From: Promethearchaeota archaeon
Lineage (GTDB): Archaea; Asgardarchaeota; Lokiarchaeia; Sigyniarchaeales; SOKP01
Assembly (NCBI GenBank): GCA_048939015.1
Contig: JBHLPW010000011.1
Coordinates: forward strand, 1-26,919
Direction of reading: 5' to 3'
DNA length: 26,919 nucleotides
Shown here: positions 1,662-25,340 of the stretch, in pieces
Numbering within the stretch: position 1 is the first letter of the stretch
Layout: each line of letters opens with the position of its first letter
Notes under the pieces: model-generated
The model's database searches: none
The model's input: the letters and a program-made list of their open reading frames with translations, nothing else
Told to the model about the DNA's origin: nothing
Position numbers and translations under genes: made by a program

Positions 1662-3377
1662 TTACCTTTTAGCAAAGGGTTCAAGGTCTAAGGCTTCAAA
1701 AATTTCATCAACGGATTCTATTGTTCCTAAAAAGTGCCATTCTCCTTCTTCGACATTTTGACCAGAACCATATTTCGAAGCCATATCATAAAGCCTATTA
1801 AAATTTCCATAATGCAAAGCAACTCGATTTTCTGCATAATCTCGAGCAGACCACGTAGTTATTAAAAATTGCCAGTCGCTACTTTCTAAAAGAAGAAGTT
1901 CTCTAGCCATCTGCTTCAGGATTTTAATTAGATTAGGATCATTAGAATCTTTATATTTTGCTATGATATCTTCACTCTTCGCTTCACATTCATAGATTCT
2001 TTCCCATGTCCAAGTTGTCCACTCATTTAACCACACCCAGTGAGAACTTGCTTGGCCCCAAGAGCCTTCAATTACGCTTACTACTTTATTTGGGGGATTA
2101 GCTTCAAGATATAATCTAGTATTAGTCAATTCTACTTCTGGATCATCTTCCACCCACCTAAGAACTCTGGCTATCCACCAATTTCCCTCAAACCACCAAT
2201 GTCCAAATAACTCTGCATCATAGGGTGCTACTACAATTCCGTTGTTCCCATTCTTATTTTTGTAATCTCTTAATATATCTTTAATTAGATTTAAATAATG
2301 TCCTGCATTTTCATCCAGTTTACCAGGTACGTCGTCTGGCCAATATAACATCTTTTTGCCCAAATCCAGCTTAGGGCTCGTAACCTTCCAGTATTTCAAT
2401 CCGCCAGGCCAGTTCTTTTTATGAAAATCGAGATATTCAGCACAACCAGGATATCCATGCTCTCCACTCCATACTACAATTCCAGTTTTTTCATCTCTTG
2501 TAAAAAAACCGACGGGTCCAGGAGTGCTAGGATCAGTTGATACTAAATATGGTTCATATTGAGATTTTTCAAAAGAAGTTGGGATTTCTTCATATTGCGA
2601 TTCAAATTGTTTCCAGAGCTCTGCAAGTAAAGGAAATCGAGCGGCATAAACTCCTTGTGATTTTCCACCTAAGAGTAAAGCGGTATCAATAAAAAAGTAT
2701 TTTAACCCATTTTTAGCAAGAAAATATTCCACGCCAGGGCGATTATATTCTTCTCCAGTTATAGGATTTTTCCAACGATATCCTGGACGATAAGCACATT
2801 CTGGTAGCCATACTCCTGTAGGTGCTCTTCCAAAATGACTTTTGTAATTATCAACTGCTGTTTTAAATTGAGCATCTATTGATGAATCTTTAGATAGTAA
2901 TGGAGCATAACCATGAGTTGCTCCACAAGTGATGATATCAATTAGTCCTATATCTTGAAGTTTTTTAAATGCTCCCACAACATCCTTATTATATCGATTT
3001 ATAAAATTATCTCTAACTCGATCATAGAATTCCTGCCACCATTTAGTTAATTTGATTCTTCCGTCAGTATATTTATTTTCAGTAAAATTTTCAAAATCAT
3101 TTACAGCAGCATTATATTTTTCTTCTAGATATCCTTGAAAACCATCAATAAATCTAGGATGGCGAAGCATCTCACACAATACTGGAGTAAGACCAATAGT
3201 TAGTTTTGGATGGTATCCATCATCAACAAGTTTATATAATTCTATTAGAAGTGGAATATACGTCTCTGCAGCTGCCTCATTAACCCAATCCATTCCATGT
3301 GGCCATACACCATGTCCCAATACCCATGGAAGGTGGCTATGTAAAACAAAACAGAATGAACCTAAATTTTCAGTCAT
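1662..3377 (-). CDS. GH57 family 1,4-alpha-glucan branching enzyme (DUF1957 type)
   Basis: Motifs HSHLPWV, ETYIPL, ATHGYAPLL, nucleophile WLPECAY, acid/base PYDAELFGHWWFEG and C-terminal RELLLLESSDWQF, typical of TK1436-like branching enzymes. Confidence 0.92.
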   Translation of the reverse strand: MTENLGSFCFVLHSHLPWVLGHGVWPHGMDWVNEAAAETYIPLLIELYKLVDDGYHPKLTIGLTPVLCEMLRHPRFIDGFQGYLEEKYNAAVNDFENFTENKYTDGRIKLTKWWQEFYDRVRDNFINRYNKDVVGAFKKLQDIGLIDIITCGATHGYAPLLSKDSSIDAQFKTAVDNYKSHFGRAPTGVWLPECAYRPGYRWKNPITGEEYNRPGVEYFLAKNGLKYFFIDTALLLGGKSQGVYAARFPLLAELWKQFESQYEEIPTSFEKSQYEPYLVSTDPSTPGPVGFFTRDEKTGIVVWSGEHGYPGCAEYLDFHKKNWPGGLKYWKVTSPKLDLGKKMLYWPDDVPGKLDENAGHYLNLIKDILRDYKNKNGNNGIVVAPYDAELFGHWWFEGNWWIARVLRWVEDDPEVELTNTRLYLEANPPNKVVSVIEGSWGQASSHWVWLNEWTTWTWERIYECEAKSEDIIAKYKDSNDPNLIKILKQMARELLLLESSDWQFLITTWSARDYAENRVALHYGNFNRLYDMASKYGSGQNVEEGEWHFLGTIESVDEIFEALDLEPFAKR

Positions 3378-3565: not shown

Positions 3566-4954
3566 ATGATTCACAATCCAATAGAAAACCTTAATGAGTT
3601 AAAAAAGAACGGAAGAATTATAGGAAAAGCAAATTACGTCTTTACACCAGAGATATCAAGCTCAATAGGATCTATTCATGGTAGTTTCTTCAAACAAAAT
3701 GAGTCTATTGTCATGGGGAGAGATTTCCATAATGATAGCCGGATGTTAAAAAGAGCTTATACTTCAGGTATGATGTCTACAGGGATAAATCTTTTAAATC
3801 TCTCAGATTGTACATTTCCATTATTGCAATTTACAATTCGACGCTTTGGGGCCAGTGGTGGAGTTTATTTCTCTGGAGGTCATTTATATAGTGAAGATGT
3901 TGGAATAAGGTTTTTGGATGCTGGCGGTATTGAGTTGACCCAATCAGAAATCGACAAAATAATAGAATCTTACAATAATTATCCTCGGCAAATAAGAAGA
4001 GTAGATCCAAATGAAATTGGACAAATAACGGCAATACCTCAGACTGCAGATGTTTATATCAAATCTCTTCAGCAATTTGTAGATAAAAAGAAGATAAAAA
4101 AAGCGAACTTAAAAATTGTGGTAGATTGTTCTTATGGACCAACAGGTAAAATAACACCACTTTTAATTAATGATATAGGAGTTGAAGTCATAGCTTTAAA
4201 CACTCATTATCGCGAAAGGGCTTCAAGTCCAGTACCTAGTATTAATACCATTCGTAATACAGCAGACATCGTGAAAGCATCAAATAGCCATCTTGGAGTA
4301 TGTTTTGATGTAGACGGTTCAAGAATTTTAGTGATAGATGAAAATGGACTTGAAATAACCTTCGAAGATCTATTAATGCTTTTTATTTCATTTGATAAAA
4401 GAATTCAAAGATCGAAATCTAGTACCATCATTACAACGCCTTCGATATCTACAGTTGTGAGAAATTTCGTCGAGGATAGCGGTTTTCCTATAAAGCAAGT
4501 AGAAAATTACCCTGGAGAGATTTCAAGGCAAATAAGAGAAGAACGCGCATGTTTTGCTGCAGCAGATACTTTAAAATACTATTTCCCAGAATATAGTCCC
4601 TTTTCAGATGGTAACTTTATTCTACTTAAGATTTTAGAAATAATGACTACTCAAGATGACCTCCTTAGCTCATTAACAAGAGGATTTCCAAAAGGTATTA
4701 AAATAAATAAAGCTATACCAGTTTCTTCAGAATTGATTGAAAACATCCATAATCGATTAAGAATGATGGCAGACGAGAATGGATACAAATATCATGATAT
4801 TATAAATGAATTAAAGATAATCGATAACGATACATATACAACCATTAGGGTAGCTTTATATAGAAATGCATTACTTTTGTCAGCTGAATCGAAAGAAAAA
4901 GAAAAAGCTCAAAAAATGATCACTGAATTAGAGGAAATTATATCCAAACTTTAA
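3566..4954 (+). CDS. Alpha-D-phosphohexomutase (PGM/PMM) fold protein with degenerate catalytic motifs
   Basis: Family layout is present (G..N..FTPE, MGRD...DSRMLKRA, KIVVDCSYG, GVCFDVDGSR), but the phosphoserine loop reads FSGGH instead of TASHN. Confidence 0.85.
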   Translation: MIHNPIENLNELKKNGRIIGKANYVFTPEISSSIGSIHGSFFKQNESIVMGRDFHNDSRMLKRAYTSGMMSTGINLLNLSDCTFPLLQFTIRRFGASGGVYFSGGHLYSEDVGIRFLDAGGIELTQSEIDKIIESYNNYPRQIRRVDPNEIGQITAIPQTADVYIKSLQQFVDKKKIKKANLKIVVDCSYGPTGKITPLLINDIGVEVIALNTHYRERASSPVPSINTIRNTADIVKASNSHLGVCFDVDGSRILVIDENGLEITFEDLLMLFISFDKRIQRSKSSTIITTPSISTVVRNFVEDSGFPIKQVENYPGEISRQIREERACFAAADTLKYYFPEYSPFSDGNFILLKILEIMTTQDDLLSSLTRGFPKGIKINKAIPVSSELIENIHNRLRMMADENGYKYHDIINELKIIDNDTYTTIRVALYRNALLLSAESKEKEKAQKMITELEEIISKL

Positions 4955-13340: not shown

Positions 13341-13937
13341 TTGATGAATCAACTAAACGATGAACAAGTCACTCTAAATAAAATTGAGGTACCAGACAAA
13401 ATTCCGGCAAAGTTCGTCAATTCGCGGGTAATTGTCTTCAATCCTTTATATGCTTCATATTTATATGTAAAGAAAGGATTTTTTGGTTCCCCGGTAGGAA
13501 TAAATAAACCGAGATTAGAATACTTTGCTAAACCTAGTGAATTATCATTGATAGAAGCTTATTATTTATTGGAAAAGGATGAAATTACTATATTTGATCA
13601 AAAAGAGAATAAATTTTTAGATCCGAAGGAATTTTATGATATTGCAACAAGGATTCATCATAAGTTTGAAGAAAAATACATAATTTACAAAGATTTAAGG
13701 GAGAGAGGTTATATTCCTAGACCTGGATTAAAGTTTGGAGCGGATTTTGTTGTATATAAGAAGGGTCCTGGACTTGAGCATTCTCTTTTTATGGTACATG
13801 TCCTACCACATGATTCTGAAATTACTGCTATCGATATGGTAAGAGCTGGACGTCTAGCGACTTCTGTTAGAAAAAAATTTGTAATAGCGAATCCACTTAC
13901 ACGCAGCTACTACTTTTTTGAGTGGTTTAAACCTTAG
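13341..13937 (+). CDS. endA: tRNA-intron endonuclease, catalytic subunit
   Basis: LSLIEAYYL, YKDLRERGY, GLKFGADFVVY (Tyr), GPGLEHS (His) and RLATSVRKK (Lys) give the catalytic triad. Confidence 0.95.
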   Translation: MMNQLNDEQVTLNKIEVPDKIPAKFVNSRVIVFNPLYASYLYVKKGFFGSPVGINKPRLEYFAKPSELSLIEAYYLLEKDEITIFDQKENKFLDPKEFYDIATRIHHKFEEKYIIYKDLRERGYIPRPGLKFGADFVVYKKGPGLEHSLFMVHVLPHDSEITAIDMVRAGRLATSVRKKFVIANPLTRSYYFFEWFKP

Positions 13938-13964: not shown

Positions 13965-15788
13965 TTAAATAGATTTTACTCTCATTATCTGGATAAGATT
14001 ATTTTTTATCTCTTCAAGTTGTTGGAACTCATCATTTGGTACCATTTGATGGATACGCAAAATAGAGGATGTAAGGTCTGGATCGAATATTTCATCAAAT
14101 AATTTTCCTTTATTTATCAAACTTTTACCTTCTCTGTATAAAATAAGGATGATTTTGATTAATCCTAATAATTTTGTCATACTAGTATGATTATCAATTT
14201 GATCATATGCATTTTGAATTAAAAATCCATTTTTTATCATTTTTGCTATAAAGAGTGTTAATTTTTGGTCTTCAAGTAAATTCTTATCTCCAGCTAACTG
14301 AATCACATGCTCTAAGTCTTTTTCTTGCGATAGGATTTCATTAACTAGTTTTCTACATTCTAACCATTCAATATCTATCTCAGGCCATTCAATATCTCTA
14401 TTGTACCACCATTCTGCTATAAATTGTGGATAATTTGAATATGAATTTTGCCAATTAATAGCAGGATACTGCTTTAAATATGCTAATTTTGAATCTAATG
14501 CCCAAAAAGTTTGGACTAGCCGTTTGGTTGTTGATGTAACAGGTTCACTAAAATCCCCTGCAGGGGGAGAAATTGTACCTATAATGGTTAATGAGCCAAA
14601 TTTCTCATTTCCTTTTTGGTCATTCCCTAAAGTTTTAATATAACCGGCCCTTTCATAAAAACTTGACAATTTGGATGGTAGGTAGGCAGGATAACCTTCT
14701 TCTGCAGGCATTTCTTCTAATAATCCTGAAATTTCTCGCAAAGATTCAGCCCATCTTGATATACTATCAGCAAGAACAACGACATCATATCCCATATCTC
14801 TATAATATTCGGCAATTGTTACACCAGAAAATAAGCTAGCTTCCCGGGCAGAAACTGGCATATTAGAAGTATTAGCTATAAGTATAATTCTGTCTGATAA
14901 AGTTCTTCCATTTTTAGGATCTATAATATCAGAAAATTCCTTCATAATATTAGCAATTTCGTTTCCTGGTTCGCCACATCCAATATATACAATCAAATCT
15001 GCATTACACCATTTAGCTAACATTTGTTGGATGACAGTTTTTCCTGTTCCAAAACCACCAGGAATAGCTGTTGTTCCTCCTTTTGCGATTGGAAATAATA
15101 AATCAATAGTGCGTATTCCGGTAATTAATGGTTCAATGGGATTAAATTTCTTATCATATGGACGTCTTTTTGTAATCGGCCATTTTTGTAACATTGCAAA
15201 GGATTTTTCTTCATCGTTTACTTTTATTCTAAATATCTCATCAATAATTGTATAATTACCCTCATTTGCAATAAAGGAAAGGATTCCAGAAGTATAGGGG
15301 GGAACCATAATTCTATGTTCTAAATATGAAGTCTCTTGCACAACTCCAATTATATCTCCTATCTCAACTTTATCATTAAGTTTTCTTAATGGTATAAAAT
15401 GCCATTTTTTAGTTCTTGAGATAGAAGGATATTGTATACCTCTTTCTAACCTTCCGGAAAGAATATCTTCAAAAAGTCTTCCTAATGGTCTCTGTAATCC
15501 ATCGAATACATTTGAAAGAAGACCAGGAGCTAATTCCATTGAAAGTGGCTCATTTAAACTAATTACATTATCATATAGCTTCACGTTTGTAGTGTCTTCA
15601 AAACATTGAACAGTAACATGGTCTGAATAAATTTGGATTACTTCACCCAAAATATTATATTTGATAATCTTAATTAAATCATGAAGACGAGTTTGATTTT
15701 CAAGCCCCTTAACTTTAATCAATGATCCTATAATTGCTGAGATATATGCACGATTGGTTTTATTTTTTGAATCAGTTTGATTGAACAT
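13965..15788 (-). CDS. atpA: A/V-type ATPase subunit A, second paralog with altered catalytic motif (GEPGNE)
   Basis: Full-length A subunit with Walker A GGFGTGKT, NTSNMPVSAREAS, EEMPAEEGYPAYL and SPPAGDFSEPV. The GER motif reads GGC GAA CCA (Pro codon at 14967-14969). Confidence 0.93.
   Translation of the reverse strand: MFNQTDSKNKTNRAYISAIIGSLIKVKGLENQTRLHDLIKIIKYNILGEVIQIYSDHVTVQCFEDTTNVKLYDNVISLNEPLSMELAPGLLSNVFDGLQRPLGRLFEDILSGRLERGIQYPSISRTKKWHFIPLRKLNDKVEIGDIIGVVQETSYLEHRIMVPPYTSGILSFIANEGNYTIIDEIFRIKVNDEEKSFAMLQKWPITKRRPYDKKFNPIEPLITGIRTIDLLFPIAKGGTTAIPGGFGTGKTVIQQMLAKWCNADLIVYIGCGEPGNEIANIMKEFSDIIDPKNGRTLSDRIILIANTSNMPVSAREASLFSGVTIAEYYRDMGYDVVVLADSISRWAESLREISGLLEEMPAEEGYPAYLPSKLSSFYERAGYIKTLGNDQKGNEKFGSLTIIGTISPPAGDFSEPVTSTTKRLVQTFWALDSKLAYLKQYPAINWQNSYSNYPQFIAEWWYNRDIEWPEIDIEWLECRKLVNEILSQEKDLEHVIQLAGDKNLLEDQKLTLFIAKMIKNGFLIQNAYDQIDNHTSMTKLLGLIKIILILYREGKSLINKGKLFDEIFDPDLTSSILRIHQMVPNDEFQQLEEIKNNLIQIMRVKSI
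14652..14726. repeat. 75-bp near-identical repeat shared between the two atpA copies (other copy at 21320-21394)
   Basis: Direct comparison gives 73/75 identical nt. Confidence 0.85.
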
Positions 15789-15812
15789 TTAACATCCCAT
15801 ATTACAATCAAA

Positions 15813-16232
15813 TTAAGTTATTTGTTTGTTACAAAATGGACATTTTTTCACGAAACTTGGTAAAATATTTCCACAGCCTTGACACTTTTTAATTAAAGGT
15901 TTATGAACCCCCGAGTCAAGACTTATACGTCCAGGTATTCTTGGTTGAGGTATTTTCTCTTGAACTACTCTAGTTTGTTTTCTACTTGAAGATGTTCGTT
16001 TTCTATTTGGAAACATTTCAGAATATAACGATCTTTTACTTCGCTTAAAGAATAGACCAAGTCCAACTAAAAATAAGAAGGATATTAAAGAAATTATGAT
16101 AATAGGGTTAAAATTTAAATCAATTAAATAAAATAATAGGAATAAGAGAATTAAGGAGTATATAACTAAACCAGCAATTGCCTTTTTATTTATTCTAAAT
16201 TTATATTTCTTTTCGATATTTTCAGTTGCCAT
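15813..16232 (-). CDS. Small membrane protein with 2 TM helices and a C-terminal zinc ribbon
   Basis: Two hydrophobic helices, a basic linker and KCQGCG-x7-KCPFC. Lies between atpI and the second atpA with 24-38 nt gaps. Confidence 0.8.
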   Translation of the reverse strand: MATENIEKKYKFRINKKAIAGLVIYSLILLFLLFYLIDLNFNPIIIISLISFLFLVGLGLFFKRSKRSLYSEMFPNRKRTSSSRKQTRVVQEKIPQPRIPGRISLDSGVHKPLIKKCQGCGNILPSFVKKCPFCNKQIT

Positions 16233-16270
16233 TGATTATTAGCTTACATTCTAGATAGTTGGTTTATAAT

Positions 16271-18559
16271 TTATTTATATTTTTTAGAGATATAATTAAT
16301 TGCTTTTTCAATTTCCTCTCTAATAGATTCTGTTTCTATTTCTTTTTCAATTTCCTCAGAAATAATATCTTTTTCAGTTATTGACTTAAAGTTGATGATT
16401 GAAAAATTACTATCTAAATGGAAAGGAATATATCCCACTCCTGAACCTTGGAAAAATTTAAAAAAGAATTCATAAAAATGCAATCTGAGGGTATTTAGAA
16501 AAACTAATAATCCTTCTAATAAAATAACAATGAGATTTCCGAAGATTAAACCAATTAAATTCACTATTTCTACAACAATGCCTTCTCCTTGAATTAAATT
16601 AACCAAAACATTTATCGCATACAATAAAGCAATATGGGCTAAAGCTAACGCTAATAATCTAAGATAAGAAGCAACATTACTCATAACAGATAATACAGTG
16701 TCAAATGTTTCAAGAGAACCCTCACCTATTAATGAAGTATAAGATTCCTTTTTTAGATATGAAACTCCAAATAATTTTCCAAAAGGCTTCAAAATTAATA
16801 GTAATAAACCAGGTATTATCACTAATAAAATAGGATATGGATATGCTAACCAACTATAAATATCAAATCCATATACGAAAATTAAGATCGTTCCTCCTGT
16901 TAATAGAAAAATTTTCATTAAAGAATCAGTTAGTGCTAAATACTTTCTATATTGTTTCCAATAATTCAAAAATTGGATAATCCAACCTAAATTAATGTGG
17001 AAAACACCTATAATTATTGCAAAATAAAGCACAGACATTATGTTACCTAATGGATTGTAAAGGGTTAAATTTAAAAAAGGAATTGTTATAGGTTCTAAAT
17101 GCCATAAAACATTTCCAAAAATTTCAATTTCGTGGAGTCCAAAAAACTCCCCATATAAAAAACCAACGAAAAATGAAGCCCATCCACAGAAAAAGATAAT
17201 CCAAGAGAAATTAACAATATCACCTCCTCGTTTTCTATAGACTAAAGCTCCAATTAAGCCTGAAATAATAAGAACTAAACCATGACCGATATCTCCAAAC
17301 ATTAAGCCAAATAATATTGGAAAGGTGATTGCAATAATTGGTGTAGGATCAATTTCTGAATACGTTGGTGTACCATACATTCTTGTAAGTGTTTCGAAAG
17401 GTTTAACTAAAAAGAAATTCTTCATAATTGTTGGAGTTATTTCTCGTAAGTCTGATTTGTCTTCATCCTCTTCCAATGTATCTATTATAGGTTCTTCATC
17501 AGATTTTATTTTTTTAGCCGATTTTTTCTTTTTTATTTTTTCTAAACCATAATTTTCTTTTGTAACACTTTTTTTTGAGATTAAAATTGATTCAATTGTA
17601 ATATTATCCTTAAATTTATTAAATAAATTATTTTGAACATTTTTTAATTTAGAAGCAGGTACGAAAAATTTTAAAATTAAGCGATTACTTGGCATTCTTT
17701 CAAACTGTCTATTTGCCCAATTATATTCTTCAACATTTTGAACGATTTCATTGATTCCAGCGAACATTAGTAAGTTATCTTTACTAATTCGATTAAGTTC
17801 TTTATAATATCTTAAAAGCAAACTTTCAATAAAATTAATCTCTTTATCAATTCTTTTATGGTGTATTCCCGATTCTGTAAAATATTTTTTTACGATTGGA
17901 ACTTCTTCAGAATGAATAAGGCGAATTCTTCCATTAAACTCAATTTCTTTATCTCTTGGATAAATTATATAGAATCCAATTCTATCTTTAGAGACTTCAA
18001 AAGTTTGATAAAAGTTTGGAAAAACACTAAAATCGAAGAGGTTATTAAGGTTATTGAGATTTTTAGAAAATGTAGTAAATATTCTAAATTTAAATTGATT
18101 TATATCAACAAGTGAATCTGTTTTCATATTCAGCTTCTCTAAACTCTTATAGCAAACCTTTAACATATTCAAATTCTCTAATTCAATAGTTCCTTTAGCA
18201 ACAAAACTTTGCAATTCATTTACTCGATTACTATAAAAATTTACTTCTTCAAAAAGGTGGTTAATTAACTCTGGTAAATCATTTGCAGTAAATTCTATTC
18301 TTTTGATTTTATCACTTTTTAATTCTGAAAGAATAGACTCAGTAACATTAAGCTTTTTTAATAAATTATTTAAATTCTTTCTCAAATCTTTAATTCTATC
18401 AGCAATTGGTTCTTGATCTTCTGAATCTTCTTTAATTTTACTTTTCTCTCTCGGTTTTATATGAACTAAGGCTAAGTTAGATAATTCAATTAGAAATTGA
18501 TCTCTAAAAATGGGATTTATTTCGGTTTTCATCAAATAAAAGTTGTCTTTATTCGCCAT
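16271..18559 (-). CDS. atpI: A/V-type ATPase subunit I (a)
   Basis: Motifs PFETLTRMYGTPTYSEIDPT, FGLMFGDIGHG, the essential Arg in SNVASYLRLLALALAH, and LEGL...LRLHFYEFFFKFFQG. ATG at 18559 (MANKD) preferred over the TTG at 18592. Confidence 0.95.
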   Translation of the reverse strand: MANKDNFYLMKTEINPIFRDQFLIELSNLALVHIKPREKSKIKEDSEDQEPIADRIKDLRKNLNNLLKKLNVTESILSELKSDKIKRIEFTANDLPELINHLFEEVNFYSNRVNELQSFVAKGTIELENLNMLKVCYKSLEKLNMKTDSLVDINQFKFRIFTTFSKNLNNLNNLFDFSVFPNFYQTFEVSKDRIGFYIIYPRDKEIEFNGRIRLIHSEEVPIVKKYFTESGIHHKRIDKEINFIESLLLRYYKELNRISKDNLLMFAGINEIVQNVEEYNWANRQFERMPSNRLILKFFVPASKLKNVQNNLFNKFKDNITIESILISKKSVTKENYGLEKIKKKKSAKKIKSDEEPIIDTLEEDEDKSDLREITPTIMKNFFLVKPFETLTRMYGTPTYSEIDPTPIIAITFPILFGLMFGDIGHGLVLIISGLIGALVYRKRGGDIVNFSWIIFFCGWASFFVGFLYGEFFGLHEIEIFGNVLWHLEPITIPFLNLTLYNPLGNIMSVLYFAIIIGVFHINLGWIIQFLNYWKQYRKYLALTDSLMKIFLLTGGTILIFVYGFDIYSWLAYPYPILLVIIPGLLLLILKPFGKLFGVSYLKKESYTSLIGEGSLETFDTVLSVMSNVASYLRLLALALAHIALLYAINVLVNLIQGEGIVVEIVNLIGLIFGNLIVILLEGLLVFLNTLRLHFYEFFFKFFQGSGVGYIPFHLDSNFSIINFKSITEKDIISEEIEKEIETESIREEIEKAINYISKKYK

Positions 18560-18581
18560 AATTGTCACTTTCAATTTTTTT

Positions 18582-19217
18582 TTATTTTTCAATAATTAGA
18601 TCTTTAGTTTTTTTTAACCTAATATAATTTTCTCTGTCAATTTCCTCTAATATATCTTTTATTAGTTTAATGTTAGATTTCAATTGAGGAATTATGATAT
18701 TTTTTAAACCATTTATCCTACGATTGATTTTCTTAAAGTTTATTGCTTGTTTTAAAAGCAAATCTTCGATTTCAGAAAATTCAATCATGTGATTAAAAAA
18801 TGATTTCAAAGATTGAATTAAATCATCTAAATAATGACTTGTATTGTCAAATGTATAAGCAGGTAATTTTTCTTCTTGAATTAGTTCATAAGAAATTTGT
18901 GGATTTGTAATTCCTACTACTTTTTTGTAAAAAATTTCTATTTTAGGTTTGTATTGAATTCTACTTAAACTACTTATTAAGAACAATTCATTTTTTCCCA
19001 TCTCTTCATAAGTAAGATTTAATAATTTCATTGATTCTTTAAAAAAAGTGAGAAATTCGTTTCTATATTTAATATAATCTTTCCACATACTACGAAGTAA
19101 AATAATTAATTGTTCTCTTCTTAATTCCAAAAAATTCGCTCCTTTTTGAGCAAAATTTAATCTTTTACGCAAGTTTATTAAGTTCGTTTTACTTGGCTTT
19201 ATCTCTCTAAAACTTAT
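18582..19217 (-). CDS. atpD: A/V-type ATPase subunit D; probable ATA start at 19217, giving 211 aa
   Basis: RLNFAQKGANFLELRREQL and KKINRRINGLKNIIIPQL...LEEIDRENYIRLK. The conserved IKPSKTNL (P-T/S-x-x-x-L) lies upstream of the annotated TTG. Confidence 0.93.
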   Translation of the reverse strand: MSFREIKPSKTNLINLRKRLNFAQKGANFLELRREQLIILLRSMWKDYIKYRNEFLTFFKESMKLLNLTYEEMGKNELFLISSLSRIQYKPKIEIFYKKVVGITNPQISYELIQEEKLPAYTFDNTSHYLDDLIQSLKSFFNHMIEFSEIEDLLLKQAINFKKINRRINGLKNIIIPQLKSNIKLIKDILEEIDRENYIRLKKTKDLIIEK

Positions 19218-19220
19218 TCT

Positions 19221-20612
19221 TTACACCTTTTCAGAATAATATTTATCAATAAATTTTTGATGAATTCTAAGCAATTGATTTTCAGTTAAATTACCTAATA
19301 TATCCCAAGCGATATTAAGAGAATCTGCGAAATTACGATTTTCATCTGGTTGTTGATTCATAAATTTTTGTTCAAATTCTTGTCCATATTTCAATAAATT
19401 CTTTTGCTCAAAGTTTAGCCCATCTTCTCCGACAATTGAAATAAGGTCTTTAACTTCTAAATAATTTGAATAAGATGCTAATAATTGAGAGGATACATCT
19501 GCATGATCATCTCTCGTTTTATCCCCACCAATAGCATCCTTCATTAATCGTGATATTGAAGCTAAGACTTCAAAAGGAGGGTAGATGCCTTTCTGGTGCA
19601 AACTGCGACTTAAAACTAATTGCCCTTCAGTGATGTATCCTGATGTATCGGGAATCGGATGAGATATATCATCATTAGGCATTGTTAGAATGGGTATTTG
19701 AGTTATTGATCCCTTCTTGCCTTTAATTTTTCCAGTTCTCTCATAAATGGATGCAAAATCAGAGTATATATAGCCCGGATATCCCTTTCTGCTAGGTATT
19801 TCCTCTTTTGCAGAGCTTAATTCTCTTAAAGCCTCAGCGTAATTCGTCATGTCAATAAGAATAACAAGAACATGCATATCCTTTTCAAATGCAAAATATT
19901 CCGCAGTAGTTAAAGCGACTCTTGGAATAATTAATCTTTCTATAATTGGGTCATCAGCAAAATTGATAAACGAAATTATATTTTGTATAGTCCCTCTTTC
20001 TTGAAATTTATTTAAGAAATAGATTGCTTCATCTTGGATTATTCCTATCCCACAAAATATAATAACAAATTGTTCTTCTGAGGTAACTCGTGCTTGAGTC
20101 GCAATTTGAGCGGCTAATTTATTGTGAGGTAACCCTTGTGCACTAAAGATTGGAAGTTTTTGGCCTCTAATTAAAGTAAATAGCCCATCTATCACGGATA
20201 CTCCTGTTTGTATAACATCAATAGGGTATTCTCTAGCATATGGATTAATTGGCAGTCCATTAATATCTCTTTGAATATTAGTTAGAATCTCAGATTTTGA
20301 GATCATTTTAGTTTTTATATCTATAGGTTTACCTAGTGAATTAAAAGTCTGCCCAAACATATCCATTGAAATTTTTACTTTAAAAACATCTTCCGTAAAT
20401 ACTATCTCTGCATTCTCAGATGATAATCCAGAAGTATCTTCAAATACTTCCACGACTATCATCTCTTCATTCAATTTTACAATCTGGCCTGTACGAGTCT
20501 TGTTATCATCTGTATTAATTTTAACAATCTCACCATATTGAGCATCATGTTCGTTTTTAAGAAATAATAACGGACCTATAATTTGCTGAATTTTTCTATA
20601 AATTACACTCAT
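19221..20612 (-). CDS. atpB: A/V-type ATPase subunit B
   Basis: Motifs RGQKLPIFS..GLPH, DMTNYAEALRE, GYPGYIYSD, TMPNDDISHPIPD.SGYITEGQ and the arginine finger SISRLM. Confidence 0.97.
   Translation of the reverse strand: MSVIYRKIQQIIGPLLFLKNEHDAQYGEIVKINTDDNKTRTGQIVKLNEEMIVVEVFEDTSGLSSENAEIVFTEDVFKVKISMDMFGQTFNSLGKPIDIKTKMISKSEILTNIQRDINGLPINPYAREYPIDVIQTGVSVIDGLFTLIRGQKLPIFSAQGLPHNKLAAQIATQARVTSEEQFVIIFCGIGIIQDEAIYFLNKFQERGTIQNIISFINFADDPIIERLIIPRVALTTAEYFAFEKDMHVLVILIDMTNYAEALRELSSAKEEIPSRKGYPGYIYSDFASIYERTGKIKGKKGSITQIPILTMPNDDISHPIPDTSGYITEGQLVLSRSLHQKGIYPPFEVLASISRLMKDAIGGDKTRDDHADVSSQLLASYSNYLEVKDLISIVGEDGLNFEQKNLLKYGQEFEQKFMNQQPDENRNFADSLNIAWDILGNLTENQLLRIHQKFIDKYYSEKV
19224..19229 (-). 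promoter_or_regulatory. Shine-Dalgarno AAGGTG embedded in the atpB 3' end
   Basis: Reads AAGGTG-TAAAGA-ATA AGT TTT on the minus strand. Confidence 0.6.
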
Positions 20613-20614
20613 TT

Positions 20615-22453
20615 TTATTTAAATACCCCATGGGTTAATTTTAAAGATTCTATTTCATTAAGTAATTTATTCTTTAAATCATCAATTTTGTCGAAATCCC
20701 TATTCTCAATTGTACGATTAATTCTTAAAATATCACGTATTACTTTAAGTTCTCTAATTTCTTCTATAAAAAATCCTTTTTCTAACAGTTCTTCACCTTC
20801 TTTATATAATAAAAGAATAATTTTTATCATTCCCAAGAGTTTTTTCGCGTTTGTAAAGTTATCGATATTATCAAATGCATTTTGAATTAAAAATCCATCT
20901 TTAATCAACTTAGCAATAAATATAATTAAACGTTGATCTTCTGGGAGATTTTCCTCTCCAATAAGTTGTACAATATATCTTAACTCATTATCTTTTGATA
21001 GAATCTCATTTACTTGTTGACGACAATCATGCCAATCTATATCAATTTCTGTCCAATCTATATCTCTTTCATACCACCACTGTGAAATATAATCTGGATA
21101 ATTAGAATAAGAATTTAACCAATTAATTGCAGGATAGTGCTTTGAATATGCTAAAGCAGCATCTAAAGCCCAAATACCCTGTACAAAATTTTTAGTTGTG
21201 GCTGTAACTGGTTCACTAAAATCTCCTGCAGGAGGTGAAATAGAACCTATGATAGTTAAAGACCCTATGCTATCTTCATTACTTTCTTTTTTTCCAATTA
21301 ATTTAACAGTTCCAGCCCGTTCATAAAAACTTGACAATTTGGATGGTAAATAGGCAGGATAACCTTCTTCTGCAGGCATTTCTTCTAATAATCCAGAGAT
21401 TTCTCTTAACGATTCTGCCCATCTAGAGGTGCTATCGGCTAGAAGTGCAACGTCATATCCCATATCTCGATAGTATTCAGCAATTGTTACGCCAGAGAAG
21501 ATACTCGCCTCACGAGCAGAAACTGGCATATTTGATGTGTTAGCTATCAAAATTATTCGATCTAATAGGGATTGACCACTTTTAGGATCAATTAATTCAG
21601 AAAATTGTTTTAAAACATCGGCTATCTCGTTACCCCGTTCACCACAACCTACAAATACAATTACATCTGCATCACACCATTTTGCTAATGATTGTTGAAT
21701 GACTGTTTTACCAGTGCCGAATCCTCCCGGAACTCCAATTGTACCTCCTTTTGTAATGGGAAATAGCAAATCTATGACTCTTACCCCTGTGATTAAAGGT
21801 TCATGGGGCAATTTTCTCTCTTTAAAAGGGCGTGGAATAGTTATTGGCCATTTTTGTAGCATTGAAAAATTTTTTTCTGTATTACCAATCTGTAATTTAT
21901 AGATTTCGTCTGTAATCGTGAAGTCTCCTTCATCTGCTAGGAAAGTTAACTTTCCTGATATATTAGGAGGTATCATGATTTTATGTTGTATAATTGGAGT
22001 CTCTTGTACTGTACCAATAATATCACCACTACTTACATGTTTGTCAATATTACTATTAGGTAAAAACTTCCATTTTTTTGTGCGTGATAGGGAAGGAATT
22101 TCTAATCCTCTATGTAACCCACCTCCTTTAAAAAGATCAAAAGCTTCTTGTAAAGGTCTTTGAATTCCATCAAAGAAATTCCTTAATAACCCAGGTGCTA
22201 ATTCCATAGATAGAGGTTCTTTCAAATTAATGACCTCATCATTGATTCGTAAATTATTAGTGTTCTCAAAACATTGACATACTACATGATCAGTATAAAT
22301 TTGAATAACTTCTCCTAGAATTTTGTGTTTACTGATTTTAACCAAATCGTGAATGCGAATCTGGGTTTCTAGTCCTTTAACTTTAATTAATGAACCAATT
22401 ACAGCTGATATATACCCTATCTCAGAATTTTTTTCAGAATTGGATTTGCTCAT
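20615..22453 (-). CDS. atpA: A/V-type ATPase subunit A (canonical catalytic copy)
   Basis: Walker A GGFGTGKT, intact GCGERGNE, ADSTSRWAE, EEMPAEEGYPAYL and HYPAINW. Confidence 0.97.
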   Translation of the reverse strand: MSKSNSEKNSEIGYISAVIGSLIKVKGLETQIRIHDLVKISKHKILGEVIQIYTDHVVCQCFENTNNLRINDEVINLKEPLSMELAPGLLRNFFDGIQRPLQEAFDLFKGGGLHRGLEIPSLSRTKKWKFLPNSNIDKHVSSGDIIGTVQETPIIQHKIMIPPNISGKLTFLADEGDFTITDEIYKLQIGNTEKNFSMLQKWPITIPRPFKERKLPHEPLITGVRVIDLLFPITKGGTIGVPGGFGTGKTVIQQSLAKWCDADVIVFVGCGERGNEIADVLKQFSELIDPKSGQSLLDRIILIANTSNMPVSAREASIFSGVTIAEYYRDMGYDVALLADSTSRWAESLREISGLLEEMPAEEGYPAYLPSKLSSFYERAGTVKLIGKKESNEDSIGSLTIIGSISPPAGDFSEPVTATTKNFVQGIWALDAALAYSKHYPAINWLNSYSNYPDYISQWWYERDIDWTEIDIDWHDCRQQVNEILSKDNELRYIVQLIGEENLPEDQRLIIFIAKLIKDGFLIQNAFDNIDNFTNAKKLLGMIKIILLLYKEGEELLEKGFFIEEIRELKVIRDILRINRTIENRDFDKIDDLKNKLLNEIESLKLTHGVFK

Positions 22454-23162
22454 AATACTTCAAATATTCTGTTATTTTTCCCCGTTGATTATTAATAAAT
22501 TTTTCAAATTCTTTTTCTGTTTCCTTAATTTCTGAATCATCTATAATTTTTGCAATTTCTATTTGGATGAATGGTGATGCTTTATCTATCAAGTTATTAA
22601 GAGTATAATCATATGAGATAATCCCTCCTATAAGTGATATCTTGAAACCACCTATAAAATCACGTTGATCCTTGTTAATTTCAACAGGTTTTTTGAATAA
22701 CTTTCCAATTTTATCATAATTTTTAATAAAATAATCGTAATCTTTTGAATTAAATAGAATTTCTATATCATGAGTCTCATCTATGTTATTTTTAATATCT
22801 TTAATAGATTTTAATAAATAATTAATATATCCCGTATAATTTTTGTTGATTTTGTTTTCAATTAGAATAAATAAACTTTTTTTTAATTCTTGAATTAGAT
22901 TATTCTTTAATGCAAGGACTTTATCTTTCCCTTTTAATAATGTTGATGATAAGGATTGATTTAAAAATTGCCCAAAAGTTTCTATGAGGTGTGTTTTTAA
23001 TCTTTGAGATCTTTCATTACTTCTTTCCAAAAATCTTTTCTTGATTTCAGCCTTTTGAAATAATGTTTTTTGACTTAACTCTTTTATCTCTTTTTGAGCC
23101 TTCTCAATAAAATAATAACCCAATTGACTAAATTGTTTCCTTAATTCTTTTTCTTCTGAAAT
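22434..23162 (-). CDS. atpE: A/V-type ATPase subunit E; probable ATT start at 23162, giving 242 aa
   Basis: Coiled-coil N-terminus, C-terminal FIGGFKI...ISYDYTL (GG...D-x-T/S motif), and position directly upstream of atpA. Confidence 0.8.
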   Translation of the reverse strand: MSEEKELRKQFSQLGYYFIEKAQKEIKELSQKTLFQKAEIKKRFLERSNERSQRLKTHLIETFGQFLNQSLSSTLLKGKDKVLALKNNLIQELKKSLFILIENKINKNYTGYINYLLKSIKDIKNNIDETHDIEILFNSKDYDYFIKNYDKIGKLFKKPVEINKDQRDFIGGFKISLIGGIISYDYTLNNLIDKASPFIQIEIAKIIDDSEIKETEKEFEKFINNQRGKITEYLKYYEQIQF

Positions 23163-23176
23163 TTTAACTCAACTCA

Positions 23177-23500
23177 TTATTTAAAAACAATATCACCTAA
23201 TGCATCATGAATCTTATTAAAAATAATATCTCCTTCCTCAATATTAGGTTGGAAAATATTTGGTAAAAGAAATACAAAGGGCTTTTTATTGGCTTTTTTA
23301 TAATCCAATAAAAAGTCAATTATTTCATCTGATAATGCGATGGATATAAGCAATATCCCAATTGACTCTATCTTTATTAATTCGGAGAATTCTTTTAAAA
23401 ACTCTTCCTCATTTCTAACAACTGTACCTTCTATTCCTAAAAGCCCCAATAATATTACTATTTCATCTTCTCCTAGGATATGAATTTTTAGTTCTTCCAT
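23177..23500 (-). CDS. atpF: A/V-type ATPase subunit F
   Basis: KIHILGEDEIVILLGLLGIEG, IGILLI, PFVFLLP and IHDALG. 107 aa. Confidence 0.9.
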   Translation of the reverse strand: MEELKIHILGEDEIVILLGLLGIEGTVVRNEEEFLKEFSELIKIESIGILLISIALSDEIIDFLLDYKKANKKPFVFLLPNIFQPNIEEGDIIFNKIHDALGDIVFK

Positions 23501-23811
23501 TAAAAATCAATTCCTACCTTTTCAATAATTAGATTTTGTAAATTGGCTATATTTTTTTTAAAATTGTTTTCAATTTTATTAATTGCATTATTTAGATTTT
23601 TTTCATATACATTAGTTTCTTTGTCTATATCAACAGTTAGATTTCCTATAGCAGTCTTTACAAGCACATTTATTTTAGTTAAATACTCTTCAAATTTTTC
23701 ATTTTGGTTTTCTCGAAATTCTTCAATCTCTTTCAAGTTAAGACTTTTAGCATCATTTATTAGATTATCATAAACACTTTCAATATCCTTAAGCCATTCA
23801 AATATATCCAT
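23500..23811 (-). CDS. Probable A/V-type ATPase peripheral-stalk subunit G/H
   Basis: 103-aa helical, charged protein (LKDIE...LINDAK) in the operon, with a TAATG overlap to atpF. Confidence 0.65.
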   Translation of the reverse strand: MDIFEWLKDIESVYDNLINDAKSLNLKEIEEFRENQNEKFEEYLTKINVLVKTAIGNLTVDIDKETNVYEKNLNNAINKIENNFKKNIANLQNLIIEKVGIDF

Positions 23812-23861
23812 TAATCATCCCTTTCTTACTCTATATCTCATTTTGAATAATAATAATAATA

Positions 23862-24923
23862 TTATAGGATTTTATATTTTTCATTGATTAAAGTGACTAA
23901 TTTTGGTAATATGTATAAACGTATTTCTTTATCTTTTTTAATTAAGACTTCCATAATCTTATAAATTGTTAGATAATCAATCTCTCCAGCTCTTATCTTG
24001 AATTTTTTAAAGAAATATTCCAAATACAAAGTTTCAACTGACCATATTATGTGATTTCTATCAATTTCAAAACTTGGAAAAAGCGATCTAAATTCTTTTA
24101 TTCTACCTAATAGTTGATGTAGTATTGAAATAAAATCTTCAATAGTAGATTGTTCTATCAAAAATAATAGAATACTACTGTCAAAAAATAAAAATGTATC
24201 AACTAAAAATTGTTGTAACAAATTTCTATCAATGTTATTTTTAATTCCCCTATAAATTATATTTAAATTATATATCTCAGAGATATATCTTATATAAAAT
24301 GAAATTATTGCTTTTTCTTTTGGATTTAAGTACTTTATTTCATCAACCAAGGTATTATAAAATAATTGATCTAAAAAAGCTTCAAGTACAAATATTTCAT
24401 TGGTTTTTTTAAAGTAAAGAATTCCTTCTCTGATTACTTTATGATACTTAGTACGTCTCATAAATAATTGAATTTGATCTAAAGAGGATATTTCAATTAG
24501 GCTTTTCATGAAATCTGTATTATTTAAGTATTTTTCAACTAACATATTTACCATTTTCGATTTTTCTTGAGTACTCATTCCTAATATTGTACCGAGGATG
24601 ACATGTTTAATATTCATTATTTCATACTTCGTTAGAAAATTCTTTAGAAAATTTCTCATATTTTCTGGAGAGTATGATAGAATTTTACCAATTAATTTAA
24701 TATAAGTATGGAAAAGTGCTCTTTCAATATCTTCTATTGTGTATGCATTAAAACTAAGACCTGGATAATATACACTGATATATTCTATAAATTCATTAAT
24801 ATCAGAGATTTCGTCTAACTTTTGAAATGATGATTTATCCATTAATAATTGTTTTAAATAACCAATCTTAATTAAAGTATAAGCGTAGCTGGGGACGGTA
24901 ACACTCGTAAGAAATTCACTTAT
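23862..24923 (-). CDS. atpC: A/V-type ATPase subunit C (d); probable ATA start at 24923, giving 353 aa
   Basis: Motifs KYEIMNIK, LEAFLDQLFY, SEIYNLNIIYRG and KDKEIR. The in-frame upstream segment YAYTLIKIGYLKQLLM resembles the conserved Y-x-Y-x-x-x-R/K...LL N-terminus of subunit C. Confidence 0.85.
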   Translation of the reverse strand: MSEFLTSVTVPSYAYTLIKIGYLKQLLMDKSSFQKLDEISDINEFIEYISVYYPGLSFNAYTIEDIERALFHTYIKLIGKILSYSPENMRNFLKNFLTKYEIMNIKHVILGTILGMSTQEKSKMVNMLVEKYLNNTDFMKSLIEISSLDQIQLFMRRTKYHKVIREGILYFKKTNEIFVLEAFLDQLFYNTLVDEIKYLNPKEKAIISFYIRYISEIYNLNIIYRGIKNNIDRNLLQQFLVDTFLFFDSSILLFLIEQSTIEDFISILHQLLGRIKEFRSLFPSFEIDRNHIIWSVETLYLEYFFKKFKIRAGEIDYLTIYKIMEVLIKKDKEIRLYILPKLVTLINEKYKIL

Positions 24924-24959
24924 TAAGTATTTTTTATATATTATTTAAAAAAATTATTT

Positions 24960-25340
24960 TTAAGCTGCTGGTGTTGGTATCTTTGTCCAAAGTAAAATTC
25001 CAACAATGAAACCATAAATTGCTAATGCTTCACATAAAGCTACAATTAAAAAAGCCTTAAAAAATGCTTCTTCTCTCTCTGAAAGAGCTGAAATTGCTGC
25101 CGTGCCAACTGTTTTCATAGCCAATGCACTTCCAATTACAGAAAGACCAACTGCTATCGAGGCACTTATAGCCATTGATGCTGCAGTTACCGAATTATAA
25201 TAATCAAATGTACTAGGAACTTGTGCTACTACAAATGAAACAATTCCGTTTGAAGTAAAGATTACTAAGAATATCAAAATAACTTGAAATATACCAAGAC
25301 AAAGATAAAACTTTTGTTTTCCGTTCATAATTTTTTGCAT
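24960..25340 (-). CDS. atpK: A/V-type ATPase proteolipid subunit K (c), single hairpin with N-terminal leader
   Basis: AVGLSVIGSALA..VG.AA and LIVALCEALAIYG (ion-binding Glu), plus an extra hydrophobic N-terminal segment. Confidence 0.93.
   Translation of the reverse strand: MQKIMNGKQKFYLCLGIFQVILIFLVIFTSNGIVSFVVAQVPSTFDYYNSVTAASMAISASIAVGLSVIGSALAMKTVGTAAISALSEREEAFFKAFLIVALCEALAIYGFIVGILLWTKIPTPAA

Follow-up and report, generated by a model that had tools for sequence, protein, structure and literature searches.

A second subunit A gene with proline at the phosphate-binding position in the A/V-type ATPase operon of a Lokiarchaeia family

Why would an archaeal rotary ATPase operon that already encodes a normal catalytic subunit A carry a second gene of the same kind at its end? 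The question arises in a 26,919-nucleotide (nt) window of DNA (contig JBHLPW010000011.1, one contig of Lokiarchaeia assembly GCA_048939015.1; 4.86 Mb, 94.9% complete), whose close relatives are Promethearchaeota (Lokiarchaeia) records. There, an A/V-type ATPase operon ends in an open reading frame (ORF) for a two-helix zinc-ribbon protein (ZnR) and a second subunit A gene, here called A'. Sequence evidence argues strongly that A' is a selected, well-preserved, and non-decaying paralogue, and its product is very probably catalytically crippled. The reading of its role that we favor, and to which we give about an even chance, is that A' acts as a near-dead third head subunit that would stall mixed rings, saving ATP where redox-driven ion pumps were not detected.

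Throughout, "the family" is that of the window genome, from which 135 genomes were searched, and the comparison set comprises 265 other Asgard genomes. Residue counts refer to nonredundant sets of 57 A', 44 family A, and 14 outgroup A sequences (58 catalytic A in all) and use aligned positions: position 273 is R273 in the window A and P274 in the window A', and position 501 is E501 in A and K502 in A'.

Fold and active-site residues of A'

A' aligns with the A of the window genome without gaps at 64% identity, and its four-domain architecture (barrel, bulge, nucleotide domain, and C-terminal domain) is complete. Its predicted model has a pLDDT of 88 and a template modeling (TM) score of 0.90 to Enterococcus hirae 3VR4, and matches to known A subunits reach E=4e-170. 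With the catalytic A subunits of A/V-ATPases (Pyrococcus horikoshii 1VDZ/3M4Y, E. hirae 3VR4, Thermus thermophilus 3GQB/7VAI), A' shares the fold, the P-loop, the catalytic glutamate, Walker B, and the adenine pocket; unlike them, it has proline in place of the arginine that binds inorganic phosphate (Pi), lacks the rotor-loop acid, and is encoded beside a normal A.

The arginine of the GER motif at position 273, present in 44 of 44 family A and 14 of 14 outgroup sequences, is replaced by proline (GEP) in 57 of 57 A'. This proline lies 24 residues after the P-loop lysine, the same spacing as between K238 and the ATP ligand R262 of E. hirae (PMC9336149). In Escherichia coli F1, the equivalent betaR182Q substitution gives an ATPase activity of 0.020 versus 42, with ATP synthesis absent, Pi binding lost, and MgADP binding unaffected (PMC3268026), and A' naturally carries the same class of lesion as the betaR182Q/K mutants. 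Because all four proline codons occur at position 273 across genomes and the exact motif recurs in 80 of them, the replacement is not an assembly error. Its invariance bears out, at the level of sequence, the suggestion of a preliminary description of the window that A' is probably catalytically crippled.

Walker A (GxxxxGKT/S), the catalytic glutamate, and the Walker B aspartate are kept in 57 of 57 A', and A' also keeps the betaR246-equivalent arginine and the equivalents of the T. thermophilus site residues F230, S385, and Y419 (PMC2775895). Inspection of the alignment found no compensating basic residue near the nucleotide site. Other A'-typical changes are D279N, I318L, S437L (a neighbor of the adenine pocket, leucine in 55 of 57 A'), and loss of E501, whose counterpart in E. 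hirae is D480, which opens the rotor-facing DELSEED-equivalent loop (PMC3772951). Position 501 is glutamate in 44 of 44 family A and acidic in 13 of 14 outgroup sequences, whereas it is lysine or arginine in 47 of 57 A' and acidic in 2 of 57. Entropies in the N-terminal barrel, linker, and bulge are 1.11, 1.00, and 1.24 for A' versus 1.07, 1.04, and 1.29 for A, and the C-terminal domain is more variable in A' (1.39 versus 1.12). No A'-specific conserved surface was found beyond ~10 positions. The possibility that A' replaces B was rejected: the arginine finger is absent, with a SYSNY-type sequence at that position, and the P-loop and bulge domain (PF16886) are intact.

Distribution, selection, and history of the second gene

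An exact DNA-pattern search for CGEPGNE, which other kinds of altered A could escape, matched 80 of the 135 family genomes and none of the 265 other Asgard genomes. Among the 80 metagenome matches listed, 53 are ATPase frames, each low in GC and with its best matches in the host family; the rest are unrelated sequences. The median ratio of nonsynonymous to synonymous substitution rates (dN/dS) is 0.15 for A', compared with 0.11 for A, 0.06 for B, and 0.21 for I, and values for A' range from 0.10 to 0.30 in all 32 of the (non-independent) close pairs, indicating purifying selection. A' is neither confined to one genome nor evolving neutrally (dN/dS near 1), so two of the three grounds on which the preliminary description would have abandoned its claim fall away. 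Repeated absence in relatives (at least 5 to 6 changes in A' presence on the operon tree, where loss and transfer look alike) and slightly faster evolution than A might suggest a decaying duplicate or an assembly artifact, but this reading, to which we assign almost no probability, is refuted by the distribution, the dN/dS values, and the residue pattern, with intact frames and the same proline, written in four codons, in 80 genomes.

A' is optional, with clean absence from many related operons; in at least 14, the endonuclease gene that flanks A' in the window comes straight after ZnR. Among the operons surveyed, A' was never seen to take the place of A. Subclades of A' mirror host clades, and approximately unbiased (AU) topology tests reject neither A' as one clade (p-AU 0.71) nor duplication at the base of the family (p-AU 0.11). 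Two genomes (G190, L143; G191, L145) carry A' alone, outside the atp operon and far from ZnR, as long-branch sequences of 56 to 57% identity. The A and A' of G174 and G175 have 82% identity, and their four-fold silent sites agree at 0.70 to 0.73, versus ~0.37 by chance; sharing with all other lineages is at or near saturation (mean ~0.4, highest 0.54); these A' still keep P273, L318, L437, and K501. This pattern is most simply read as gene conversion from which the defining residues were spared, and would then imply that the R-to-P lesion itself is under selection; alternatively, this lineage may be a slow-evolving source of A'.

The survey also turned up irregular operons. The one-contig assembly G006:C1 has A-B-D near 2.19 Mb (L153) and I-ZnR-A' near 3.05 Mb (L154), reflecting either a real rearrangement or a scaffolding error. 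Catalytic A genes of 1137 to 1171 amino acids (aa) in L120 (G207), L127 (G186), L138 (G181), and G034:C65 probably carry inteins, and the only A gene of G282 (L137, 9886-11771) is in two frames of 333 and 302 aa, through a frameshift or a sequencing error. Four genomes of 92 to 98% stated completeness (G017, G198, G280, and G258) have no subunit A match at E<=1e-40, owing either to assembly gaps or to true loss of the ATPase, and G031, from another family, has two separate atp operons (L155, L156), both with normal GER subunits. On the B+I+C+D tree, genus codes g1, g12, g21, and g22 each fail to form a single clade, pointing to label problems or operon transfer.

The literature searched, which included papers on ATP synthase evolution and left subscription papers mostly outside, held no description of such an A'. 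An A-type and a V-type match have both been reported in a Loki genome (PMC7997004) and may or may not represent the A' duplication.

The operon, its energetic setting, and ZnR

The arrangement first described, K-C-G/H-F-E-A-B-D-I followed by ZnR and a 607-aa A', was confirmed for 11 of 11 ORFs, all on the minus strand with short gaps (38 nt between I and ZnR, 24 nt between ZnR and A'); the endonuclease gene marks the operon end (Table 1). The A/V-ATPase set is complete (A, B, C, D, E, F, G/H, I, and K, with G/H and E assigned by weak Pfam matches and synteny), and the ion-binding carboxylate in K and the arginine finger in B are both present. K comprises one hairpin with a glutamate (CEAL) and a hydrophobic N-terminal segment. 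The frames of C and D are open upstream of the first ATG/GTG/TTG, up to 24944 (a 360-aa open frame) and 19220, respectively; the true start of C probably lies further upstream of 24842, and ATA starts are plausible for both genes, with a possible one for D at 19215-19217.

A tblastn search of the host assembly confirmed that B is single and, beyond the genes of this operon, found neither a gene for A, B, I, K, or any other subunit nor a separate canonical atp operon. Being the single atp operon in the assembly, it encodes the only detected rotary ATPase of the cell and not, as once proposed, a specialized additional one. Nor is its "rearranged" order special: another family of the same taxonomic order (L157) has K-C-H-F-E-A-B-D-I in operons with a single A. 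Elsewhere in the window, a phosphohexomutase-like gene (3566-4954) is divergent from a GH57 branching enzyme gene (1662-3377).

Table 1. Features of the A/V-type ATPase operon and its flank in the window
Feature	Position	Strand	Details
Subunit K/c	24960-25340	-	126 aa; NCBIfam PRK06251 E=1.4e-14
Subunit C (AC39/d)	23862-24842	-	PF01992
Subunit G/H, peripheral stalk	23500-23811	-	103 aa; weak PF03179 E=0.005 and conserved position
Subunit F	23177-23500	-	107 aa; PF01990; residue 99 at 23204-23206
Subunit E, peripheral stalk	22434-23123	-	PF01991 E=1e-4
Catalytic subunit A	20615-22453	-	612 aa; PRK04192 759 bits; GERGNE intact
Arg273 codon CGG in A	21635-21637	-	
Glu501 codon in A	20951-20953	-	
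Subunit B	19221-20612	-	463 aa, single copy; PRK04196; arginine finger (SISRL) intact
Subunit D, rotor	18582-19172	-	PF01813
Subunit I/a	16271-18592	-	773 aa; PF01496
ZnR	15813-16232	-	139 aa, two predicted membrane helices, C4 zinc ribbon
A' (second subunit A gene)	13965-15788	-	607 aa; PF02874, PF16886, PF00006, PF22919 over cut-off
Pro274 codon CCA in A'	14967-14969	-	gamma-phosphate/Pi-binding Arg position
Lys502 codon in A'	14283-14285	-	first acid of DELSEED-equivalent rotor-contact loop
tRNA intron endonuclease gene	13341-13937	+	PF01974; convergent, 27 nt from A' stop

Across operons, the gap before A' is mostly 9 to 62 nt. No shared motif was seen by eye upstream of A', and a scan for sigma-70 promoters and terminators, a model unsuited to archaea, returned chance-level results. 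When columns of the operon subunits were screened against A' presence, the best of ~3,500 was residue 99 of subunit F (F99), acidic in 40 of 49 operons from A'-bearing genomes versus 3 of 26 from genomes without A'. New genomes point in the same direction (12 of 16 with A' and 2 of 8 without, by strict count), but there are only 5 independent pairs, 2.4 the same way and 0 opposite (p ~0.5; not significant), and with so many columns to pick from the association is no more than a lead on ring entry. A fixed salt bridge between F99 and K502 is unsupported, as 9 of 36 acidic-F genomes lack lysine or arginine at 502.

Profile searches of the host genome gave no match to PF00361, PF00146, PF03116, or PF02665 and detected no membrane subunit of complex I/Mrp/group 4 hydrogenase, Rnf/Nqr, or NarI/HdrE; PF00146 (NuoH-type) occurs in 4 of 135 family genomes. 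With almost no redox-driven ion pump detected, the enzyme probably often runs as an ATP-consuming proton pump. The host has two H+-pyrophosphatases (H+-PPases), and the family has them in 110 of 135 genomes, in a pattern that does not track A'. One H+-PPase gene lies at 40933-42897 of the contig, ~15 kb past the end of K, and at a similar distance in several relatives.

ZnR has helices at residues 16-38 and 43-62, a long basic linker, and a C4 ribbon with invariant C117, C120, C131, and C134, preceded by a conserved LxxxY[RK]xP segment; some copies have two ribbons. It matches in 124 of 135 family genomes, although some weak matches may be other proteins, and in other families of the order it adjoins atpI or immediately precedes K; its tie to the atp operon spans at least three families of the order (L157, L278-L291). 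The partnership proposed for ZnR and A' fared less well than their synteny: A' is conserved and syntenic within the family, but ZnR also follows atpI without A' across the order, and A' occurs far from ZnR in G190 and G191, so by genomic evidence ZnR is not the partner of A'. Sequence searches matched only generic zinc-ribbon families and no known subunit, and Foldseek gave no match at E<=0.001. A complex prediction of subunit I with ZnR scored 0.31 against a mark of 0.32, which gave no answer and is not used as evidence. Like the eukaryotic Vo subunits e and f, ZnR is a small two-helix membrane protein, here encoded beside a/I; unlike them, it has a zinc ribbon on a long linker, and there is no Pfam or fold match between them. 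ZnR is a candidate undescribed accessory subunit of the Lokiarchaeia enzyme, independent of A'.

Possible roles of A' and their meaning

In the reading that we favor, A' would fold like A and bind nucleotide, probably Mg-ADP over ATP and without Pi, with very slow turnover. It would be made from the last operon gene together with the other subunits and would replace one A in some A3B3 rings; the conserved barrel, linker, and bulge and the short gaps suggest that it is co-produced and able to sit beside B. Mixed rings would stall because rotary catalysis needs all three sites, and A', where present, would serve as a brake or damper that curbs the waste of ATP. The expression, ring entry, stalling, and physiological role of A' we infer from sequence, and the expected effects of losing the arginine and of one dead site are borrowed from the literature on other enzymes, in which one dead beta in three stops F1 (PMC4415626). 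A mixed A' ring would resemble those engineered hybrids (betaE190Q), which, like the R182 mutants, are laboratory constructs; the literature searched yielded no natural case.

Several points weigh against such a brake. Expression and ring entry are inferential steps, and the typical 9- to 62-nt gaps before A' show no obvious promoter of its own. A constitutive, co-transcribed dominant-negative subunit would be costly, with just 1/8 of rings free of A' if both were incorporated equally, and regulation by exchanging subunits is slow. A' is absent from many related operons whose genomes equally lack pumps, and its clean absence from these pump-poor relatives indicates that it is not needed. The catalytic glutamate is invariant, which is odd for a dead subunit, given that alpha and B lose it. 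The arginine data come by analogy from F1 with glutamine or lysine, not from an A/V enzyme with proline, and the single-hairpin K and the widespread H+-PPases (110 of 135) leave a synthase role open.

We consider it rather unlikely that A' is an assembly or storage factor, an inert placeholder on B or the stalks that would prevent early uncoupled ATPase activity and later be swapped for A or stay in rotor-less A'B complexes. Loss of the invariant rotor-loop acid, the more variable C-terminal domain, the conserved assembly domains, and copies that work away from the operon in G190 and G191 would fit such a factor, but the same enzyme forms without A' in many relatives, a chaperone has no obvious need for a perfectly kept nucleotide site, and the F99 association, though not significant, hints at rotor contact. 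Improbable to a further degree is a gear change, in which each turn of a one-A' ring would use or make two ATP rather than three and H+/ATP would rise by half, as an idle site and a weakened rotor loop let the shaft pass. Loss of Pi binding would idle the site, the loop acid is gone, and co-transcription without a separate promoter would be explained; fewer catalytic sites per ring have also been argued to raise the number of ions per ATP (bioRxiv 10.64898/2026.10.01.756066). However, F1 hybrids with one dead site no longer hydrolyzed ATP (PMC4415626), and few ion pumps were found that could drive synthesis. We hold it similarly improbable that A' recently repeats the ancient catalytic/non-catalytic split, with working A2A'B3 rings of two active sites, gearing set by composition, and F co-evolving. 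Like A', the non-catalytic B (A/V) and alpha (F1) are paralogues of the catalytic subunit that lost a catalytic residue and are kept by selection; unlike them, A' retains both the catalytic glutamate and the P-loop, which B has lost, and it is young and restricted to one family.

The invariance of the catalytic glutamate and of every other active-site residue examined, together with S437L in 55 of 57 A', might instead mark a slow but working catalytic isoform, changed in its nucleotide or ADP-inhibition behavior, that takes over from A in certain conditions. Its chances are slim: the arginine is invariant in all 58 aligned catalytic A and essential in E. coli F1, no arginine or lysine compensates for it, and A' was never seen replacing A in an operon. 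Slimmer still is the prospect that A' stays off the ring and works as a monomer that senses ADP/ATP or as a scaffold, for example with ZnR. The intact P-loop, the stand-alone copies in G190 and G191, and the adjacency to ZnR in most operons could be read that way, but ZnR is kept without A' across the order, and A'-specific positions are few (~10).

The A3B3/alpha3beta3 head is taken to be built from two kinds of subunit and no more, a composition settled before the last universal ancestor. Known inhibitors (epsilon, zeta, IF1, AtpTheta, and V1 subunit H) are small or unrelated and attach to a head of normal composition. The job proposed for A', stopping wasteful ATP hydrolysis, is one that it would share with them; unlike them, A' would brake the enzyme as a dead, full-length version of the catalytic subunit itself. 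The relevance to the origin of eukaryotic V-ATPases suggested earlier is weak: A' was found in one Lokiarchaeia family only and in 0 of 265 other Asgard genomes, and it says little about eukaryote origins or V-ATPase regulation. If A' is indeed a built-in brake, it would reveal a new mode of control for rotary ATPases, through the composition of the head and not through a small inhibitor. Archaeal A/V-ATPases, for which few dedicated regulators are known to us, would gain one, and the family would offer a tractable natural model for a catalytic paralogue turning non-catalytic.

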